A DNA stretch of 37,157 bases from assembly GCA_964617175.1 (NCBI GenBank), contig CAZTVT010000002.1, forward strand, positions 1 through 37,157, written 5' to 3'. Below, piece by piece: positions 2,043 to 33,721 of the stretch. Source of the stretch: an uncultured Clostridium sp. (GTDB taxonomy: Bacteria > Bacillota > Clostridia > TANB77 > CAG-465). The notes under the pieces are model-generated. The model was not told where the DNA came from and made no database searches. It saw nothing but the letters and a program-made list of their open reading frames with translations. The number at the start of each line of letters is the position of its first letter. Within the stretch, counting starts at the first letter, position 1. A program made the translations under genes and the position numbers.

Positions 2043-3106
2043 CTCATTACTTTACCCTTGCGTTTAATCCATACAACGGCTTTTTTTACAATACCATCTA
2101 CTTTTATAAAAACTTTAGCTTGTTTTATAATATCTTCATTCTTTATATAAGCCGTTTTTATGTTTCCAGTTGCTTGTATTTTTATTTCAACATAGTTTAA
2201 ATATGTTTTACTATTTTGTGTTGTTCTTATATAAAGTCTAGCAGTATATGAATTAGAGTTTTTTAGTTGTTTATATAGTTCTTTCATTTCACTTTCTATA
2301 ATATTGTATATCCCATTATTGTCATATTCTTTATAATTAACAATTGCAGTATTGCCATCAACTTTAAAAATTCCAGCCTCAACTTTTGCGTTAGCTGGAT
2401 TACTATATTTCATATTTAAATTATTTCCAATTTTTAGTATAGAATCATAAGTGCTTATTTTAGCTATATCATGAGTAGTTATACTAATATTACTTGATTC
2501 TGTCCAAAGTCCGCTATCAGCTCTTCTTATACGTGTTCTTATATAATAAGTAGTATTTGGATTTAAATTACTTATAACATATGTATTTCCGCCGTTACAA
2601 TCTTGCCATGCTCCACCATTAATACTATGTTGCCATGCATTTATACTACTATCTGCTTCCCAATGAATTGAAACAGTATTAATACTCTTTGCACTTGCAT
2701 AATGTTGCGTAAAATTAGCATAACGTGGTATATATGATAAATCCATCCAGCCACCACAACTCATATTTCCAGGAGTATATGAAGCACTTGAACTTTGGCT
2801 ATAACTTGCACTACAATATATTGATTTGCTACCGTCTGCATTGTGCCATACATTTTTATCACCACTTGCAATAGTTATAGCACCACCTGCACTAAGAGAT
2901 TTTTGAGAATACGCATTATAAACTTCACCGTCAACATTTACAACAATTGTACTTCCTATTGCACTAAAACTATAATTACCTGTCGCTCTTAATATAACTT
3001 CCCAATGTACACTACTATAATTTTCGGCACTTGTCCAGTTTTCCCATACATTAAGCTCTAATCTATAATTTCCGTTTATACTACCTGTTGCACTCCAACT
3101 CGCCAT
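2033..3106 (-). CDS. Baseplate/receptor-binding type structural protein (DUF859-like N-terminal domain plus fibronectin type III-like domain)
   Basis: 357 aa. The N-terminal pattern (NGNYRLELNVWENWTSAENYSSVHWEVIL...VWHNADGSKSIY) resembles the siphovirus DUF859 family. The central stretch VSIHWEADS...NLNPNTTYYIRTRIRRADSGLWTESS is FN3-like. Confidence 0.6.
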   Translation of the reverse strand: MASWSATGSINGNYRLELNVWENWTSAENYSSVHWEVILRATGNYSFSAIGSTIVVNVDGEVYNAYSQKSLSAGGAITIASGDKNVWHNADGSKSIYCSASYSQSSSASYTPGNMSCGGWMDLSYIPRYANFTQHYASAKSINTVSIHWEADSSINAWQHSINGGAWQDCNGGNTYVISNLNPNTTYYIRTRIRRADSGLWTESSNISITTHDIAKISTYDSILKIGNNLNMKYSNPANAKVEAGIFKVDGNTAIVNYKEYDNNGIYNIIESEMKELYKQLKNSNSYTARLYIRTTQNSKTYLNYVEIKIQATGNIKTAYIKNEDIIKQAKVFIKVDGIVKKAVVWIKRKGKVMRCI

Positions 3107-3117
3107 ATACTCACCAC

Positions 3118-3744
3118 CTATTCATCAAAATATTGTAAATATATCTGACCTTCATTTAGATCACTTGCTGATGGAATATCAGCACCGTCTTTTATTTTGC
3201 TTGATAACATATAAGCACTTCCGTCTTCAACTTCAGATATTATTGTTCTTAATTCTTCTATTAATGCACCAGCATCATTATTTATTTTTCCGTATATGCT
3301 TTCAAAATTCAAAAAACTTCTAGTATCTTTAAATTCTGATATTCCTACTGCACTTGTTTTAAATTGTGCAAGCTCTATTTGATAAATATTTCCTGTTTCA
3401 AACACATCTTCTTGTGTTAACTTAGGATAAGCAGTAGTACTTTTTAAAACTTTAAATTTTACTTGTTCAAAATCACTTTCTGTATTTTCTTTGCTTAAAT
3501 CTAGCTCACAAATTAATTTACAATAAGCATCATTTGCACTTACCTCTACTGTTTCATCTCCAACAACCTCAATAAAACCGCCTCTAATACAGATGTATCC
3601 CTGATTAACAGTTATACTATTACTCGTATTACTTAAATTGCAGCCTTGAATTATTCCAGAATTTCCATCCAAAAAAGTATCTATAAAAAGTCTAAAAACT
3701 TTATTAGCAAAAACTTGTTCACTATATGTATGACCTCTTAGCAT
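3118..3744 (-). CDS. Hypothetical baseplate/tail protein
   Basis: 208-aa ORF between the Tal-like and DUF859-like genes. Its start abuts the upstream stop. Confidence 0.5.
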   Translation of the reverse strand: MLRGHTYSEQVFANKVFRLFIDTFLDGNSGIIQGCNLSNTSNSITVNQGYICIRGGFIEVVGDETVEVSANDAYCKLICELDLSKENTESDFEQVKFKVLKSTTAYPKLTQEDVFETGNIYQIELAQFKTSAVGISEFKDTRSFLNFESIYGKINNDAGALIEELRTIISEVEDGSAYMLSSKIKDGADIPSASDLNEGQIYLQYFDE

Positions 3745-4991
3745 TATTTCTTCATCTCCTTTTTTAATTTATCTATAAAATCAATCCTCATATTTCCTGT
3801 TGTATACTTTATAAAAGCACCACCAGTATCTTCTATTGCAGAAATATAAGTATTTAAAATCAAATTATTATTAGTTTTAATACTTATCTTTGTTCCAATT
3901 TTCATATTTTGAATATCAAATAGTTTAGTATCTCTTTTCAAATTAAATGTAATCATATGTTTATATCTATTGGATTTAAATATATCTAAAGCCGTTTGCT
4001 TTGCATCGTCTACTTTTGCCGTATAAACAGTTTCAACAATTCCATCTGCTCTGTTTTCATCATCTTTGTTATCTGTAGTTGTTCTATCAGATAATAAATA
4101 CCAGCTATGTTCACTTTTATCCTCACAAAGAACCGTTACTTTAGCGGTTACATCTTTTTCAAACATTTCTGTGTAATTTGATACATCGCTCAATGTTGCA
4201 TCGATTTTTCTTTCTTGTTCTTCTTGTTTATAAATTGATAACTTTAATCTTTTATTTTCATACTTGAAATCTAAAGCTATATCATAATTTTGAGTACAAT
4301 TTGTAACAAATGTATGAAAATTGTATATACCGTTTTCATTATCAATTGCTTTTTGTATTTTTGTATGTGTTAATATTTCAACATCTAAAAAATCTAAATT
4401 AAGTAACTGATCATCACTTTGTGTAAATTGATTTTGTATAGTATATAAAATAAAGTCTTCAATACCTTTCTCGGATATTAAAGACTCATTTTTTAATATT
4501 ATTTTTCTATCAAAAATGTTAGATATATATTTACAAGTTATACTCTGTTTAATTTCCCCATTTTCATTTACAATATCATCTACTATTCCTATATAATCAA
4601 TGCTATTATTCCTTTTAATAAATGCAAAATCTTTATTTGATATGTTATTCTTTTTCATAATATCGAACGTTGTTTTAGCATTTGTTTCTTCATCTATGTT
4701 TATATTATAATTCTCATATTTAACTATATCTTTTATTTTAAAAGTTTTCCTATCTAAAAAGTACACTAATTGTTCTTTTAATATGATTTTTTCATATTGT
4801 TTTTTTAGTATTTGTATTTTCTTTGTTTCATAGAGTGTATCACCATAAGGTTCTGTCGCTTCAATATTAAGAATTTTTACTCCACCTATTTCGCCAGATG
4901 GTAATTCACCTTCAAAGAATCCTGAATCTTTATTATATGTAAGTATATACTCTACATCTTCAAAATTAACTTTAACTCTAACTTCATCCAT
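3744..4991 (-). CDS. Tail-associated protein (Tal-like, no obvious lytic domain)
   Basis: 415-aa ORF directly after the Dit gene. The call rests on position and size in the siphovirus tail-tip module. Confidence 0.6.
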   Translation of the reverse strand: MDEVRVKVNFEDVEYILTYNKDSGFFEGELPSGEIGGVKILNIEATEPYGDTLYETKKIQILKKQYEKIILKEQLVYFLDRKTFKIKDIVKYENYNINIDEETNAKTTFDIMKKNNISNKDFAFIKRNNSIDYIGIVDDIVNENGEIKQSITCKYISNIFDRKIILKNESLISEKGIEDFILYTIQNQFTQSDDQLLNLDFLDVEILTHTKIQKAIDNENGIYNFHTFVTNCTQNYDIALDFKYENKRLKLSIYKQEEQERKIDATLSDVSNYTEMFEKDVTAKVTVLCEDKSEHSWYLLSDRTTTDNKDDENRADGIVETVYTAKVDDAKQTALDIFKSNRYKHMITFNLKRDTKLFDIQNMKIGTKISIKTNNNLILNTYISAIEDTGGAFIKYTTGNMRIDFIDKLKKEMKK

Positions 4992-4992
4992 T

Positions 4993-5841
4993 TTACACCG
5001 CCTTATATTCTACAAAAATTGTTAATTTTGCATCTGTTATTTCACTATCCGCAGATAATCTTATTTCAGATACACCTTGTGGAATTTTTATAAAGTTGTA
5101 TTTTGCTAAGTCTAAATCATCAAAAATATTTGTTAAAGTTCCATCTTGATTTTCTTTATAAACATATAATTCATCATCTTTAGTAGAATATAATATTTTC
5201 TCATATTCTTCTAATGTCATATTAAAATTAATTTCTGCTATTTTGTTTTTATTAGAATATATAGTTAAGCAAGGATTTATAACATAACCTCCTATTTCAA
5301 GTTTTATAGGAGCTTCTACATGTCCATTATTTTCAAAAGTAAAGCTTCTATTGTCATAACTTTTAAACCTACTATCCCATTTAAAATCCCACCTAATTTC
5401 ACCCGTGTTTTTTGCCATATCATATACTGTTTCTGTTTCTTCATACCAAAGACTTTTACAATTAAAATTAATAGGAATATGTAAGAAACCATCTGTGCTT
5501 TTTTCTCCTTTTTCAACACTAGACACTTCAACAATTTTATAATATTTTGTGGTATTTTTATTAATAAATGGTATTTCATATACAAATTTTAAACTTTTTG
5601 CTTGCTCAATATAATCTACCATATTTTTATAATTATCATAATTTCTAAATATTGCCTCACCTAATATATTGCCTTGTTGCAACTTTCTTATATTAGTTAT
5701 AAAGTTATTCCCTACCTGTTCATAACTAGTATCATAAGCATATCCCAGCCCTGATGGAGAACTTAAAAAGCAATAATTGTCTCTATCCATCAAATCATAT
5801 TTTTGCCCTTTTTCATTTTCTAAATAAAATTTTCTTACCAT
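4993..5841 (-). CDS. Distal tail protein (Dit; siphovirus tail component family)
   Basis: 282 aa, the first tail-tip gene after the tape-measure region. The pattern FENNGHVEAPIKLEIGGYVINPCLTI is typical of Sipho_tail proteins. Confidence 0.7.
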   Translation of the reverse strand: MVRKFYLENEKGQKYDLMDRDNYCFLSSPSGLGYAYDTSYEQVGNNFITNIRKLQQGNILGEAIFRNYDNYKNMVDYIEQAKSLKFVYEIPFINKNTTKYYKIVEVSSVEKGEKSTDGFLHIPINFNCKSLWYEETETVYDMAKNTGEIRWDFKWDSRFKSYDNRSFTFENNGHVEAPIKLEIGGYVINPCLTIYSNKNKIAEINFNMTLEEYEKILYSTKDDELYVYKENQDGTLTNIFDDLDLAKYNFIKIPQGVSEIRLSADSEITDAKLTIFVEYKAV

Positions 5842-17869: not shown

Positions 17870-18173
17870 TTACTTTTTAATTAAATTTCCTTCATTGTCA
17901 AAGTAAAACTCATCTTCTTTACTAAAATGTATTTTATTATGACAGTCTTGGCAAACACTTTCTAAATTCTCTATGTTAAAAAATACATTGTCATCTTCAT
18001 AATTCTTGTCTGTTATATATTCCTTATGATGTATTATATAAGCACTGCTATATATCCCGCTTCTTTAAACATCTTTCACATAAAGGATTTAATATTAACT
18101 TTTGCTTTCTTAGCTTTTGCCATCTTTTACTTTTATATTTCTTTGCTATTTCTAGATTATCTCTGTATGTCAT
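17870..18173 (-). pseudogene. Terminase-associated HNH endonuclease interrupted by a 1-nt frameshift
   Basis: 304 nt, not a multiple of 3. Frame 1: MTYRDNLEIAKKYKSKRWQKLRKQKLILNPLCERCLKKRDI-stop (stop at 18048-18050). The next frame continues GIYSSAYIIHHKEYITDKNYEDDNVFFNIENLESVCQDCHNKIH... Together they form a complete HNH motif. The lesion is in the CGGG run at 18056-18060. Confidence 0.75.
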
Positions 18174-18174
18174 A

Positions 18175-18408
18175 TTATTTAGCTTTCTTTGTAGTCTTTT
18201 TTACAGCTTTTTCTACTTTAGGTTTAATAGTAGCTGTTTCAACTTCTTCTACTTTTTCAACAAATATAGCATTGAAAGGATTATTACCTGTTAATACTTC
18301 ATATCTTTCTTTAGATACTTCAAATATTTCACCTGCAACTGGTATTCTATCTAACTCTTTATCCTTTAAATTTCTTTTAACATATTCATCTGTTGCTTTA
18401 ACTTTCAT
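18175..18408 (-). CDS. Hypothetical late-operon protein with Lys-rich tail
   Basis: 77-aa ORF whose stop lies 1 nt before the HNH start. Confidence 0.5.
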   Translation of the reverse strand: MKVKATDEYVKRNLKDKELDRIPVAGEIFEVSKERYEVLTGNNPFNAIFVEKVEEVETATIKPKVEKAVKKTTKKAK

Positions 18409-18410
18409 TT

Positions 18411-18605
18411 TTACTTCCTCCTTTGAAAATTAATACATTTCTCATCTCGTATATTTAATCTACAACGTATTGTATTACGTTTTTCACAACTCTTACATTG
18501 TGTTTCTTTTATCTCTTTTTCATTTATTAAAAACTCTTTACTTAATTTCTCTCTTAGTATTTCATCATATATATAATTCTTATATTGTTTTGATTTTTTA
18601 CTCAT
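18411..18605 (-). CDS. Hypothetical small Cys-containing basic protein (first late-operon gene)
   Basis: 64-aa ORF with CKSCEKRNTIRCRLNIRDEKC, tightly packed with the next gene. Confidence 0.45.
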   Translation of the reverse strand: MSKKSKQYKNYIYDEILREKLSKEFLINEKEIKETQCKSCEKRNTIRCRLNIRDEKCINFQRRK

Positions 18606-28942: not shown

Positions 28943-29337
28943 GACTTAATACCCTATGAGGTATTGTCGAAAGGATGTGATTATTTTGACAAAACTTTTG
29001 ACTTTACCCTGCTTCTTAAAGATTAGTGATTTATATGGTGGTAGAACTATATAAATCAGCTGGATAGCTTAAAATCTAAAATTCTAACTGCTATGGGGTA
29101 ACTTATTACTTATTTATTTGCAGAACTACAACTGCATAAGTGTTAGAGCTTTCATAGAATTTACGAGTGCTAGTTGTAATATTAGTTGAATATGTATGGG
29201 CATACTGATGACATGGAATGTCGTAAAATAAACGTACTGTATGAATGTATGGGCTATATACTAATTGCAAAAGTTTAAGATATACAAATTGTAGAGAAAT
29301 ACTAATCATACTAGCACTATGGTTAGTATTTTCTATT
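28943..29337 (+). ncRNA. Candidate ~0.4-kb non-coding transcript antisense to the early operon
   Basis: Starts at the promoter above and has no SD-led ORF. It contains hairpins at 28948-28965 and 29027-29058. It ends at a 10-bp hairpin (29298-29330) followed by a U-rich tract. Confidence 0.35.
29027..29058 (+). repeat. Fourth UGGUAGAA-loop hairpin (12-bp stem)
   Basis: UGAUUUAUAUGG[UGGUAGAA]CUAUAUAAAUCA. The G.U pair forms only in the plus sense. Confidence 0.8.
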
Positions 29338-29518
29338 GCCATATATCTGTAACTCTAACACCCAAATATTTTGCTAATTCGTATGCTTTTTTTAAATTAG
29401 GTATATTTTTATTGTTTTCCCACTCTGATATAGTTGTTTGCCCTATATTAAGTTCTTTTGCTATATTATTTTGTGATATTTGTTTTGTTTTTCTAATCTC
29501 TTTTAATTTACATATCAT
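29333..29518 (-). CDS. XRE-family HTH protein (second Cro-side regulator)
   Basis: 61 aa with QISQNNIAKELNIGQTTISEWENNKNIPNLKKAYELAKYLGV, a classic HTH_3 pattern. Confidence 0.8.
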   Translation of the reverse strand: MICKLKEIRKTKQISQNNIAKELNIGQTTISEWENNKNIPNLKKAYELAKYLGVRVTDIWQ

Positions 29519-29553: not shown

Positions 29554-29751
29554 TTAGTGTTGTGAAATATCAAAAAAAATATTAGTATCAAATTGAGGGA
29601 ATTGTATTTTTAGTTTCTTTATAAAATTAGAACTAGGTACTCTTATTCCCATCTCAATTTTTTCATAAAATGATTTTGAAACACCTATTTTTTCAGACAT
29701 TTCATTAATTGTAAGCCCAATTGATATTCTAAAATCTTTTAATTCTTTCAA
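29554..29751 (-). CDS. XRE-family HTH protein (Cro-like)
   Basis: 65 aa with LTINEMSEKIGVSKSFYEKIEMGIRVPS. TTG start after GGGGGTGG. It is the first gene of the rightward-to-leftward early operon. Confidence 0.75.
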   Translation of the reverse strand: MKELKDFRISIGLTINEMSEKIGVSKSFYEKIEMGIRVPSSNFIKKLKIQFPQFDTNIFFDISQH

Positions 29752-29767
29752 AATGCCACCCCCTTAT

Positions 29768-29891
29768 TTCACTCTCTGTGAATTTTATATTCATATTATA
29801 CACTTCACTATTTGTGTTGTCAATACTTTTTTATAAACTTTTTTCACTTTGAGTGAATTATGTTGACTTATATCACAAATAGTGTTATTAT
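29768..29891. promoter_or_regulatory. Genetic switch: two divergent sigma-A promoters and four TTCAC-N5-GTGAA-type operators
   Basis: O1 29768-29782 TTCACTCTCTGTGAA; O2 29804-29818 TTCACTATTTGTGTT; O3 29843-29857 TTCACTTTGAGTGAA; O4 29872-29886 ATCACAAATAGTGTT. Minus promoter: TTGACA (29823-29818), 17 nt, TATAAT (29800-29795). Plus promoter: TTGACT (29863-29868), 17 nt, TATTAT (29886-29891). Confidence 0.7.
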
Positions 29892-29936: not shown

Positions 29937-30302
29937 ATGAGTTTTGGTGAAAGATTAAAATATTTAAGAGAAAGAGATAAAATGTATCAATCAGAATTGG
30001 CTGAAAAATTAAATTTAGCACCTAGTTCAATAAGTATGTATGAGCGTGGCGATAGAGATCCTGATACTTCTACCTTATCAAAAATTGCCGAGATTTTTAA
30101 CGTGACTACAGATTACCTACTAGGACGTACTGATGAAACTAATACTGTAAAAGAAATAGACAAAAAATTAAAAGAAAATAATTTACATATTGCAGCTAAT
30201 TCTAAAGTAGACTTAGGTAAATTAGCAAAACTAGATGATAAACAAGCTAAGATTATAAATAACTTAATTGATGACTTTTTAGAGGATGAGGATGATTTGT
30301 GA
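29937..30302 (+). CDS. XRE-family repressor (CI/ImmR-like)
   Basis: 121 aa with an N-terminal HTH_3 (ERLKYLRERDKMYQSELAEKLNLAPSSISMYERGDRDPD...DYLLGRTDE). It is divergent from the Cro-like genes. Confidence 0.85.
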   Translation: MSFGERLKYLRERDKMYQSELAEKLNLAPSSISMYERGDRDPDTSTLSKIAEIFNVTTDYLLGRTDETNTVKEIDKKLKENNLHIAANSKVDLGKLAKLDDKQAKIINNLIDDFLEDEDDL

Positions 30303-30748
30303 TGGAAGATGAAAAACTAACAACGAAAGAAGCTTTAGAACTAATCGATTTGCTAAAAAATATATGTGAGAAAGAAAACTTAGTACTTCCTAATCACGGT
30401 CAAAAATCAGAGTTTTATGTTGAAGCTGATGAAAACAAAAAGCAATTCATTGTTAATATAAACCATTGCAATCGAAATATTAACAAATATACTTTTCAAA
30501 GTAGAACTGCTTTAAATCATATCCCTTTACTTAGGTTAGATATAAACCCTAACGGAGTTCACATGAACCCTGATGGTAAAAAAATATACGGAACACACTT
30601 GCATATATATAATCAAGATTTTGGATTAGATGAAGCTATAAAGTTTGATATCAATGAACCAAATTTATACAATCATTGCTTAGCTTTTTTCAAAAAATTC
30701 AACATTTTGCATAACAATTGTGATATAATATATCAAGAAGAGTTTTAA
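30302..30748 (+). CDS. Unknown 148-aa protein translationally coupled to the repressor (His-rich motif HMNPDG...GTHLHIY)
   Basis: The ATG overlaps the repressor TGA (TGATG); a GTG at 30299 is an alternative start. I faintly recall a similar uncharacterised family paired with XRE genes, but this is unverified. Confidence 0.7.
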   Translation: MEDEKLTTKEALELIDLLKNICEKENLVLPNHGQKSEFYVEADENKKQFIVNINHCNRNINKYTFQSRTALNHIPLLRLDINPNGVHMNPDGKKIYGTHLHIYNQDFGLDEAIKFDINEPNLYNHCLAFFKKFNILHNNCDIIYQEEF

Positions 30749-30760
30749 GGAGGTTTTTTC

Positions 30761-31531
30761 ATGGAAGTTTTAAATGCAGTTCAATTAAAAAAATATTACG
30801 TTGACTGGTTAAATGAAGAAATAAAATTAAATAAACTTAATAATAATTACATTGAAATTACAAGTCCACTTCTAGATATAAACAATGACTATCAACAAGT
30901 ATATGTTAATATTTCAAATCCAAACGAACTTTGTATATCTGATGATGGTTATACAATTAATAACTTATATATGCTTGGTATTGATATAAAAACAGGAAAA
31001 AGAAAAGAATTATTAAATCAAATATTAAAAAAATTTGGTGTGCATTTCGTTAACAATGAAATTTTAGTATATTGCAATTCACATGATTTCGCACAAAAAC
31101 TATTTTTACTTTCACAAGCTATGTCAAAAATAGAAGATATGTTTATGCTTTCAAAAAATAAAGTCGCATCATTTTTTCAAGAAGATGTAAAAAATTATTT
31201 AAATAAACATGAAATTTACTATAGCCAAGATGTAAACTTTGTAGGTAAATCAGGACTTCTTCATTCATACGACTTTTTGTTCCAAAAAACAAAAACTAAA
31301 CACGAAAGACTTTGCCAAACAATTAATAATCCAGATATGCAAAGCTTTAAAAATTGTGCATTCAGTTGGAATGATACCAAAGATAAAAGAGATAAAAATA
31401 GCGAGTTTATCGTTTTGTTAAATGATAAAAAAAGTATATCTCAAAACGTATTAAATGCGTTTAATAATTATGACATTAAAACAATATTATGGTCTCAAAT
31501 AGACAAAAACATTGATTTATTAACGGCTTAA
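30761..31531 (+). CDS. DUF1828/DUF1829-like two-domain protein (function unknown)
   Basis: 256 aa with a strong RBS (AAGGAGG). N-terminal pattern ITSPLLDINNDYQQVYV...ISDDGYTINNL. C-terminal pattern GKSGLLHSYDFLF...FSWNDTK. These match my memory of those Pfam domains. Confidence 0.65.
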   Translation: MEVLNAVQLKKYYVDWLNEEIKLNKLNNNYIEITSPLLDINNDYQQVYVNISNPNELCISDDGYTINNLYMLGIDIKTGKRKELLNQILKKFGVHFVNNEILVYCNSHDFAQKLFLLSQAMSKIEDMFMLSKNKVASFFQEDVKNYLNKHEIYYSQDVNFVGKSGLLHSYDFLFQKTKTKHERLCQTINNPDMQSFKNCAFSWNDTKDKRDKNSEFIVLLNDKKSISQNVLNAFNNYDIKTILWSQIDKNIDLLTA

Positions 31532-31626
31532 TAGTAGATATAAATTTTTATTAAAAATGAACCTAATATATAATTACAAAATAACCATAAATTATGTAAA
31601 AAAATTATCGGGCATTAGAAAATTAT

Positions 31627-31654
31627 TAGCGGTTCATTGCAACCGCTATTTTTT
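31627..31654 (+). terminator. Intrinsic terminator ending the repressor operon
   Basis: TAGCGGTT-CATTGC-AACCGCTA followed by T6. Confidence 0.8.
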
Positions 31655-31754
31655 ATACCAAAACAAATTTAACTAATGATAAAGCACTACAAAGTAAGTA
31701 GTGCTACTATATAATTTTCAAAAAGAACAAATGTTTTGTGATTAGGAGGTACAA

Positions 31755-32192
31755 ATGAAAAATTTAAATGACTTATATTCTTTAACTGAAAAAGAAAATA
31801 TAAAAGTTAAGAAAAAAGATTTTAAAGAATTTCAAGCAAATGGTTTATGTTTATATAACACAGATAAATGTAATATTTACTTAAATAAAAATATATCAAC
31901 AGAAACTGAAGAAAAATGTATACTTGCAGAAGAAATCGGTCACTATAAAACTGGAATAGATTTTAATTTATTAAGTACTAATAAAGAAAATGATAAAATT
32001 ACACGCTCTATAAATGAATTTAGAGCAAAAAAGTGGGCAGTTAATGAACTTATACCTTTTGAAACTTTTAAACGATTTTTAGGCTCAAATTACTCAAATT
32101 TCGAGGTAGCAAATGAAATAGGTGTAACTGAGGAAATGATAAACATGGCCTGTTTTATTTATGAGCCTATGTTATATGAAGAAAGGGGCTAA
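31755..32192 (+). CDS. ImmA/IrrE (DUF955)-like protein with non-canonical EEIGH in place of HExxH
   Basis: 145 aa with a strong RBS (AGGAGG). It contains CILAEEIGHYKTG and sits immediately upstream of the integrase, as in immR-immA-int modules. Confidence 0.6.
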   Translation: MKNLNDLYSLTEKENIKVKKKDFKEFQANGLCLYNTDKCNIYLNKNISTETEEKCILAEEIGHYKTGIDFNLLSTNKENDKITRSINEFRAKKWAVNELIPFETFKRFLGSNYSNFEVANEIGVTEEMINMACFIYEPMLYEERG

Positions 32193-32195
32193 AAA

Positions 32196-33713
32196 ATGGT
32201 TGCTTTATATGCAAGACAAAGTATAGATAAAAAAGATTCTATAAGTATAGAAACTCAATTAGAATATGGAAAAAATATCTGTAAATTAGAAAATCTAGAA
32301 TATAAAGAATACTTTGATAAAGGTTTTAGTGGAAGTAATTTAGATAGACCTAAATTTAAAGAGTTGCTAAAAGACATAGAAAGTGGTAAAATAAATAAAG
32401 TAGTTTGTTATAGATTAGATAGGATTAGTCGTAGCTTAGTTGATTTTTCTAATTTACTAGTATTATTCCAAAAATATAATGTTGAATTTGTATCTGCTAC
32501 TGAGCAATTTGATACAAGTACACCTATTGGCAGAGCTATGATTAATATTATAATGGTATTTGCACAACTAGAAAGAGAAACTATTCAACAACGTATAACA
32601 GATAACTATTATGCAAGGGCAAAAAATGGATCCTTTGCTGGAGGTAATATTCCTTTAGGATATACTAATAAAAAAATACTGATAAACAACAAGAAAGTTT
32701 CCGTTTTAGAACAAGACAGCGAACAAATACAATATGTTAAAGAAATATTTGAACTATATATTCAGAACAAAACAATAAGAAATATTGCAAGTTACTTTTC
32801 AAAAAAACTTAATAAATTAATTACAGATAAATATATTAGAAGGATTTTAATGAATCCTATATACGTAAAATCTGATGTTAAAATATATAACTATTTCAAA
32901 AATAAAGGTTATATAATACACAACAAAATAGATGAATTTGATGGTACACATGGTATTATAATATATGGAAAAGAAAAAGGTAAAAAAGGAAGAGTATATA
33001 CTGATATATCAGAACAACTTATTATACTTTCTAATAGCGAACCCATAATCGAATCCAACCAATTTTTATATGTACAGGAGAAATTAGATATGAATAAACT
33101 CAAAACTACAGCAAAAAAACAAGGAAAATATACATGGTTAACTGGCTTAATAAAATGCAAAGATTGCAATCATAGTATAGGAATTAAATTAACTAAAGGA
33201 TATAAATACCTATTATGTTCTAGACATAGATTATATAATGCATGTACAAATAAAACTTCATTTAAATTAGATGAAGTAGAAGATATAGTATATAATAACA
33301 TTTGCAATTACATAAAAGGTTTAGATTTAGAAAAAATAGAAAATAAAAAAGTAGATAATTCTTTATTACTTAACCTTAATACACTTAATATAGAAAAAAT
33401 TAAAGAACATGAAAAATTAAATAATATTATTGAAGCAATAGCAAATGGTGATAAATTAAGTGATATATTAAAAGATAAAGCTATTGAACTTGATAATAAT
33501 ATAAAAGAACTTGATAAAAAAATATTAAATATTCAAACAAAAATTGATAACAACAATTCTAATATAAATTTAGAATTATATAAAAAATCTATGGACTTAT
33601 TGCTAAATAAATTTAGCACTTTAACTATTGAAGATAAACAAAGTGTGATTAAAACTTTTGTTAGTGAAATTTTACTAAATAAAGATACATTAGAAATAAA
33701 ATATAACTTATAA
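32196..33713 (+). CDS. Large serine recombinase (prophage integrase)
   Basis: 505 aa with an N-terminal resolvase domain (VALYARQSIDKKDSISIETQ...YRLDRISRS), a recombinase domain, a Cys cluster (CKDCNH...CSRHRLYNAC) and a C-terminal coiled coil. Confidence 0.9.
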   Translation: MVALYARQSIDKKDSISIETQLEYGKNICKLENLEYKEYFDKGFSGSNLDRPKFKELLKDIESGKINKVVCYRLDRISRSLVDFSNLLVLFQKYNVEFVSATEQFDTSTPIGRAMINIIMVFAQLERETIQQRITDNYYARAKNGSFAGGNIPLGYTNKKILINNKKVSVLEQDSEQIQYVKEIFELYIQNKTIRNIASYFSKKLNKLITDKYIRRILMNPIYVKSDVKIYNYFKNKGYIIHNKIDEFDGTHGIIIYGKEKGKKGRVYTDISEQLIILSNSEPIIESNQFLYVQEKLDMNKLKTTAKKQGKYTWLTGLIKCKDCNHSIGIKLTKGYKYLLCSRHRLYNACTNKTSFKLDEVEDIVYNNICNYIKGLDLEKIENKKVDNSLLLNLNTLNIEKIKEHEKLNNIIEAIANGDKLSDILKDKAIELDNNIKELDKKILNIQTKIDNNNSNINLELYKKSMDLLLNKFSTLTIEDKQSVIKTFVSEILLNKDTLEIKYNL

Positions 33714-33721
33714 ACGTTGAT

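Follow-up and report, generated by a model that had tools for sequence, protein, structure and literature searches.

The repressor operon of a Clostridium prophage carries a conserved gene pair of the candidate defense family PDC-M24

The Gene Pair and the Repressor Operon

A stretch of 37,157 nucleotides (nt) from an uncultured Clostridium sp. (contig CAZTVT010000002.1), hereafter the window, was analyzed for two genes situated immediately downstream of a prophage repressor; coordinates are those of the window unless another locus is named. Gene A is the open reading frame (ORF) of 148 amino acids (aa) located 3' of the XRE-family repressor (30302-30748, plus strand), and gene B is the 256-aa ORF 3' of A (30761-31531, plus strand). 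As described below, the two genes were found together in nearly every genome and virus where either was surveyed, they belong to a family so far listed as a computational defense candidate, and their contexts point to a defense cassette.

The window was occupied by a prophage whose structural and replication genes, encoded on the minus strand, filled the left side. Its lysogeny module followed the ImmR-ImmA-Int layout known from Firmicute phages and ICEBs1, with a helix-turn-helix (HTH) repressor, an M78 metalloprotease and an integrase on one strand, divergent from the early lytic genes. The repressor (ImmR-like, 121 aa; 29937-30302, plus strand) matched HTH_3 (4e-16), phrog_8 (1e-27) and an RstR-family model (3e-21, under its curated cutoff). 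The ImmA-like Peptidase_M78 metalloprotease (31755-32192, plus strand) was recognized by Pfam (1.6e-10) and phrog_87 (1.4e-16), and the integrase was a large serine recombinase with the domains Resolvase, Recombinase and Zn_ribbon_recom (32196-33713, plus strand). The usual module lacks genes such as A and B, whereas in the window these lay between immR and immA, with a terminator preceding immA-int. The preliminary description, made from the sequence of this region, had regarded them as two extra genes in a module of this type, and both gene order and domain content agreed with it.

The repressor, A and B formed a single tightly spaced unit. The ATG of A and the TGA of the repressor shared one base (TGATG), an alternative in-frame GTG start was present at 30299, and a GAGG preceded A within the final repressor codons. 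A and B, on the same strand, were separated by a 12-nt spacer containing a GGAGG located 8 nt 5' of B. The unit was closed by an intrinsic terminator on the plus strand (31627-31654), detected by both terminator scanning and folding, in which a hairpin at 31627-31648 was followed by a T-run (-11.9 kcal/mol, z = -4.15); the scan returned three terminator-like sites, compared with 0.7 +/- 0.8 expected. The ORF coordinates, the overlap and the strong terminator were therefore all as previously described. A second, perfect 8-bp hairpin, AGCACTAC...GTAGTGCT, was present between the terminator and immA (31683-31705) and was listed by the scan on the minus strand only.

Upstream of the repressor, the sequence was organized as a genetic switch of the standard divergent kind. 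The divergent early lytic operon began with a pair of small HTH genes of the Cro/XRE type (29554-29751 and 29333-29518, minus strand; HTH_3 1.7e-8 and 2.6e-15). Promoter scanning located a lytic-side promoter with 12/12 matches (TTGACA-17-TATAAT; 29823-29795, minus strand) and, facing it, a candidate lysogenic promoter with a TG extended -10 (TTGACT-17-TATTAT; 29863-29891, plus strand), 46 nt 5' of the repressor ATG. A repeat search of the region revealed operator-like repeats of two kinds between 29763 and 29884. The first was a perfect 11-nt inverted pair, CACTATTTGTG (29806-29816) and CACAAATAGTG (29874-29884), with one arm in each divergent promoter; the second consisted of two TTCAC-N6-GTGAA palindromes, at ~29768-29782 and ~29843-29857, which were 75 nt apart and flanked the promoters. 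Two kinds of putative operator suggest two different DNA-binding proteins, the repressor and Cro. Since each of the facing promoters holds an arm of the inverted repeat, the earlier assignment of the rightward one as lysogenic appeared reasonable, and from this anatomy it can soundly be inferred that a lysogen expresses the repressor-A-B unit. Promoter-like matches overall were at chance level in this AT-rich window (40 versus 38 expected), so that internal promoters may also exist within the unit.

Family Identity and Published Record

A matched a single Pfam family, DUF6978 (7e-32), where the preliminary description had named none, and B showed the two-domain layout of DUF1828 (1e-20) plus DUF1829 (1.5e-29) that had already been proposed for it. 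In PADLOC, A was recovered by two PDC-M24A profiles, PDLC04536 (6.3e-33; residues 1-147 on a 148-position profile) and PDLC04538 (1.1e-25), and B by the PDC-M24B profile PDLC04539 (7.8e-86; residues 7-256 on a 255-position profile). Both proteins also matched PHROGs of unknown function. NCBIfam held no model for either one, the only two matches lying far under the curated cutoffs, and searches of Pfam, NCBIfam and PADLOC placed neither A nor B in a toxin or antitoxin family.

Judged by these profile matches, the A-B pair is of the same family as the PADLOC 'phage defence candidate' PDC-M24. The preliminary statement that the pair could not be matched to any described defense system has to be withdrawn, given that both proteins match PDC-M24 end to end, PDC-M24 being itself a computational candidate. 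The pair had thus already been flagged computationally; it does not constitute the discovery of a new kind of system, and the role of PDC-M24, as read from sequence, is that of a candidate. As far as we found, no earlier work had described that the pair favors lysogeny modules, that B is modeled with a nuclease-like fold or that A carries a conserved histidine cluster.

One of the domains of B has recently been linked to immunity, by the only functional study found on a domain of either protein. DUF1829 was newly implicated in defense by DefensePredictor (Science 2026) through DS-6B, a DUF3037+DUF1829 protein that is the partner of a HipA-like kinase in HipAD (PMC13092281). HipAD/DS-6 is a validated defense system, and its DUF1829 protein was proposed to bind both the partner and DNA and to play an antitoxin-like part (PMC13092281). 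The A-B pair resembled HipAD in having two genes, with the DUF1829 protein encoded second and the effector, in HipAD, first. It differed in the partner, a HipA-family kinase there and a DUF6978 protein here, and in the N-terminal domain of the second protein, DUF3037 there and DUF1828 here; no HipA-family kinase domain was detected by Pfam in A, B or their neighbors.

Pairing of A and B Across Genomes and Viruses

The pairing was surveyed from both sides. A set of genomic loci seeded with A, with one genome per species (21 loci, 15 clusters), spanned Clostridia, Erysipelotrichales, Faecalibacterium, Gastranaerophilales, Spirochaetes, Treponema and Endomicrobiaceae. B was located directly 3' of A on the same strand in 20 of these 21 loci, the remaining one ending at a contig edge, and the spacing ranged from an ORF overlap of ~40 nt to a gap of 31 nt. 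A second set, seeded with B in IMG/VR, comprised 63 loci (28 clusters at 80% identity), of which 56 were evaluable, in that B was complete and sufficient sequence lay upstream of it. A adjoined B in 53 of them, 50 in tandem and three convergent; in the three exceptions A had been lost, had degenerated or lacked its N-terminal part, once each. Furthermore, exact-sequence look-ups of eight B homologues, which reached down to 30% identity and included one from a high-GC organism, placed A immediately 5' of B in every case. A and B are an obligate pair, and the co-conservation on which the preliminary interpretation had been made to depend was borne out.

The pair was also present in Staphylococcus phage 37 (ORF031/ORF014), in the Lactobacillus prophage Lj965 (Ljo_0292/0291) and in the Streptococcus satellite Javan357. 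In the record of the latter (L102, MK448450.1), a 154-aa DUF6978-like ORF at 3026-3490 was unannotated, directly 5' of the annotated 'Lj965 prophage protein', which is B. The three convergent loci (L047, 3266-4677; L063, 2781-4059; L083, 4965-6255) represented an inverted-B variant in which the 3' ends of A and B overlapped by 4-8 nt and the remaining lysogeny module was on the strand of A.

Relation of the Pair to the XRE Repressor

The TGATG overlap had been read in the preliminary description as the arrangement of an XRE-antitoxin/toxin pair. According to this explanation, the XRE repressor would be the antitoxin or regulator of a toxin A, in the manner of XRE-toxin pairs or of defense operons under CapH/CapP control, and its cleavage by ImmA would release the activity of A-B on induction. 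Besides the overlap itself, weak PADLOC matches of the repressor to CapH (3e-14) and of the protease to CapP (4e-8) were in its favor, as was the order XRE-A-B-M78-integrase, repeated in L031/L032 and L069 with tyrosine integrases. Nevertheless, the XRE-A junction in those loci was a gap of 11-14 nt, and across relatives sharing the layout it was a gap of 11-106 nt, with no overlap. An XRE gene was directly 5' of A in only 8 of the 28 viral clusters; in the genomic clusters it was within 3.5 kb in 2/15 and directly 5' in 0/15. The other viral loci had, upstream of A, an M78 protease, a zinc-ribbon protein following an S24 repressor, an integrase or nothing. With regard to the criteria for type II toxin-antitoxin systems, XRE was not a conserved partner and A fell into no known toxin family (Pfam, NCBIfam, PADLOC). 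In the window itself, the XRE gene faced the cro-like genes across operator-bearing divergent promoters, which is the position of a phage switch repressor.

Because XRE genes seldom adjoined A-B, the antitoxin/toxin idea was left unsupported, and the variable or absent XRE gene together with the gapped junctions elsewhere indicated that the TGATG overlap was local to this phage and would have resulted from tight grafting into the repressor transcript. These comparative data largely refuted the model, which we regard as very unlikely; from gene order, the XRE repressor is the switch protein of the phage itself and not a component of the cassette.

Genomic Contexts of the Cassette

An integrase gene was within 3.5 kb of the pair in 19 of the 28 viral clusters and directly downstream in 13; among the 15 genomic clusters there was one with an integrase nearby. 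The phages concerned were unrelated temperate ones, with repressors of the XRE, XRE+M78 or S24 types and integrases of the tyrosine or serine families. In Lj965, the superinfection-exclusion lipoprotein Ltp neighbored the pair and shared the repressor-to-integrase interval with it. As judged by these gene orders, this interval is a recurrent cargo slot of Firmicute phages. The pair was additionally found in phage satellites and on plasmids.

The same position would also suit an accessory to lysogeny control or site-specific recombination, such as a recombination directionality factor or a switch modulator, as the pair lay between repressor and integrase in many temperate phages and had the integrase directly 3' in the 13 viral clusters mentioned. 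However, most chromosomal copies had neither an integrase nor a repressor nearby, other copies resided inside type I restriction-modification (R-M) operons, and the association with both tyrosine and serine integrases and with three repressor types tracked no single chemistry. Such an accessory role is extremely unlikely.

Several of the remaining contexts involved defense or toxin genes. In L021 a type I R-M operon hosted the pair between its hsdS and hsdR genes (gene order hsdM, three unknown ORFs, hsdS, A, B, hsdR), in L015 A-B was directly 5' of hsdR, in L028/L029 it adjoined a divergent HSDR_N protein and in L013 AbiD/Abi_2. A prophage, L024, had a PemK toxin and PBECR proteins as neighbors of the pair. 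When PADLOC was run on the unknown flanking genes of L021, L015, L016, phage 37, Lj965, L030 and L013, only the L013 neighbor was matched (AbiD). The three ORFs between hsdM and hsdS in L021 (2295-4641; 244, 202 and 299 aa) had no Pfam or PADLOC match and may be further embedded cargo. The chromosomal copies stood alone behind an intergenic region of 300-600 nt, often between housekeeping genes such as rpsI and rplM.

The anticodon nuclease PrrC is encoded within the type I R-M operon EcoprrI. A-B in L021 occupied the corresponding position, hsdS-hsdR, and by analogy this placement suggests a second-line defense riding with R-M. Most A-B copies, in contrast to PrrC, were outside R-M operons, and to our knowledge PrrC and A-B have no sequence or fold relationship.

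Decayed, fragmentary and doubled copies were encountered too, and they indicate, at the level of sequence, a turnover of the cassette at cargo hotspots. Taken together with the contexts, this turnover was the pattern expected of a defense or addiction cassette and spoke against the pair taking part in the switch or in recombination itself. DUF1828-only fragments of B were observed beside integrases in L095-L099, and L005 had a B fragment (5394-5528) 5' of an intact pair. In L053 a half-length A (4695-4955) had a start overlapping an XRE stop, and L079 carried two complete pairs on one contig.

A toxin-antitoxin or addiction module that stabilizes its mobile element, with no primary anti-phage role, would account for a good part of these observations. 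The two genes form a compact operon whose junctions are tight or overlap, the spread of the pair over prophages, satellites, plasmids and chromosomal islands is sporadic and mobile, decayed copies exist, a PemK toxin was its neighbor in L024, and the DUF1829 protein of HipAD has been proposed as an antitoxin-like partner. The family searches, nonetheless, returned no toxin or antitoxin match for A or B, and B, with 256 aa and two domains, is large for an antitoxin; moreover, the three convergent loci are awkward for a stoichiometric control of toxin and antitoxin. We consider this explanation rather unlikely as the sole role of the pair, and toxin-antitoxin and defense roles are not mutually exclusive and can coexist.

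Conserved Residues and Predicted Structures

The preliminary description had pointed to a conserved-looking His/Asp patch in A, and its conservation extended to the whole family. Among 49 diverse members, H99 and K19 were invariant, and H87, N89, P90 and H101 were conserved in at least 90%, the consensus of the patch being LLRLD-x6-HxNPDGxxIxGxHxHIY. An exhaustive profile search gave a DUF6978 family of 773 clusters at 50% identity; nearly all of the 150 clusters listed were 140-170 aa long, with no evident domain fusions. In the model of A, about eight antiparallel strands were flanked by one helix at the N terminus and another at the C terminus. The three histidines, two of them on one strand face, suggest a metal or catalytic site in this model.

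Readings of the patch as HNH, HIT-like (H-phi-H-phi) or cupin-like (G-x6-HxH-x3-E) received no fold or profile support and were discarded. A match of A to a YVTN beta-propeller (PDB 1l0q, 1.9e-11) was likewise rejected as motif mimicry, being the sum of six weak matches of the NPxGVxxxPDGKxxY segment to the propeller repeats, while a profile search of A against the PDB gave zero matches. Residues 72-102 of A (30518-30606), NPNGVHMNPDGKKIYGT, mimicked the YVTN repeat and produced this misleading summed match.

B was modeled with a predicted local distance difference test (pLDDT) score of 92 and a predicted template modeling (TM) score of 0.53, the two domains being loosely oriented. Its DUF1828 domain was modeled mainly as consecutive beta-strands, not as alternating beta-alpha-beta units. 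The C-terminal half showed the order alpha-beta-beta-beta-alpha-beta (helix 110-149, strands 155-161, 167-174 and 183-188, helix 193-209, strand 215-220). The top Foldseek matches in the PDB were VC1899 (4e-4), Cdn1 (9e-4) and Can2 (1e-3), along with Bax1, the R2 restriction-like endonuclease, PspGI and MspJI. The probability of the nuclease matches was ~1.0, yet the TM score was ~0.3 and the identity 9-13%. The model of B thus resembles PD-(D/E)xK nucleases. Conserved residues of the C-terminal domain were D142, K163-S164-G165, an acidic residue at 170 (D/E in almost all), E182-R183 and N221-D222; the N-terminal domain had a conserved acidic cluster formed by E32, D39, D43, D61 and D62. The position two after E182 was hydrophobic, and K186 was variable (Q in the window).

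Sequence and profile searches of B against the PDB, and searches of 36 B homologues against Pfam at E <= 10, gave no consistent remote or nuclease family. No relationship was detected by hhalign between the N- and C-terminal domains of B or between A and either of them. Can2/Card1/Cdn1 and other PD-(D/E)xK nucleases were the best structural matches to the model of B; unlike Can2/Card1/Cdn1, B gave no evidence of a CARF domain or a clean catalytic triad, and no cyclase or cas genes were present among the neighboring genes examined at any locus.

Proposed Role of the Pair

From the comparative evidence, A-B is probably a lysogen-expressed anti-phage defense cassette that protects the lysogen from other phages. 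It would be a self-contained, horizontally mobile two-gene cassette, inserted here as cargo in the repressor operon between immR and immA-int, and, owing to this insertion, the lysogen would produce A and B together with the repressor. The preliminary interpretation therefore stood in part: a co-conserved cargo pair, a placement that predicts expression in the lysogen and a context pointing to defense were retained, and the lack of a catalog match and the XRE antitoxin were abandoned.

As for how the pair might work, any specific mechanism is put forward with low confidence. B may be the component that binds or cleaves nucleic acids, as its PD-(D/E)xK-like model implies, and the small, stand-alone A protein, marked by its cluster of conserved histidines, would act as the obligate partner of B. 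A might be a metal-dependent effector restrained by B, comparable to the restraint of HipA by the DUF1829-containing DS-6B in HipAD, or a sensor or regulator of B. The two proteins would form a complex, one of them acting as a nucleic-acid-directed effector that the other restrains or activates upon infection. If HipAD is the guide, the effector may be A, with the DUF1829 protein binding DNA as its partner; given that B is modeled with a nuclease-like fold, the opposite assignment is equally possible.

Several observations weigh against a defense role. Many chromosomal copies had housekeeping neighbors and no adjacent defense gene, and the decay into split or truncated A and isolated B fragments is typical of selfish or addiction cassettes too. 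A canonical D...(D/E)xK triad could not be cleanly mapped on B, in which the expected Lys was unconserved and the TM score to nucleases was the low value given above; lacking a textbook triad, B could either be a nuclease of an unusual kind or bind nucleic acids without catalysis. For A, whose model had a moderate pLDDT of 76, Foldseek searches of the PDB and BFVD gave nothing under E = 0.01. The published record is equally sparing: no mention of PDC-M24 was found in the literature searched, PDC-x systems are unpublished candidates of the PADLOC authors (PMC11811056), and when other candidate systems were assayed in E. coli, 4/8 were protective (PMC12881386). Usable published transcription data for Lj965 lysogens were also sought in the literature, and none were found.

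A more far-reaching proposal is a mechanistically new two-component immune system, composed of A, with an unseen fold and a three-His site, and B, with a divergent nuclease fold. It would have been captured repeatedly by temperate phages, satellites and R-M operons across Firmicutes, Spirochaetes and other phyla, and many phages would have wired the pair into the repressor transcript and so co-expressed immunity with lysogeny. We offer this only tentatively, as possible but doubtful.

If PDC-M24 is a working defense, a widespread module borne by prophages and satellites would join the bacterial immune repertoire. Tractable entry points are ORF031/ORF014 of S. aureus phage 37, Ljo_0292/0291 of L. 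johnsonii prophage Lj965 and the Streptococcus Javan satellites. Beyond the existing family entry, the present analysis quantifies how strictly A and B are paired, documents the recurrence of the pair in lysogeny modules and R-M operons, describes a nuclease-like fold for B and, for A, an orphan fold with a conserved His cluster, and lists conserved residues together with these model phages.

The Prophage and Its Insertion Site

The right end of the prophage was located by comparison with L036, a metagenomic Logan contig (SRR17241640; 35,003 nt) whose module was ~99.7% identical to that of the window. Both sequences were identical up to ~33772 and divergent beyond, which placed the approximate phage-host junction (attR) at 33765-33780, within a peroxiredoxin gene. 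In L036, the lysis and tail genes directly followed the recombinase, as expected of a circularly assembled phage genome; L036 is probably the same phage in circular or excised form, which would give attP. The peroxiredoxin ORF (region 33714-34378) began at position 33/124 of the AhpC-TSA profile, and ~58 nt from the phage side, shared with L036, read in frame up to the DFTPVC active-site codons. Hence, attB would be within the most conserved part of the peroxiredoxin gene.

A megablast of the module against GenBank phages gave zero matches, and when cassette-less relatives were sought in IMG/VR through the serine recombinase, no relatives and hence no clean 'empty site' were obtained. Elsewhere in the window, a 135-aa ORF (18026-18433, plus strand) ran opposite to the surrounding minus-strand phage genes; it had no Pfam match and may be a second cargo gene or spurious. 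Finally, a 49-aa Cys/Asn-rich ORF, MNNNSCCCSNSGNG...CCCSSGHSNNNNNCCLF, was observed in the host DNA just 3' of the peroxiredoxin gene (34392-34541, plus strand).

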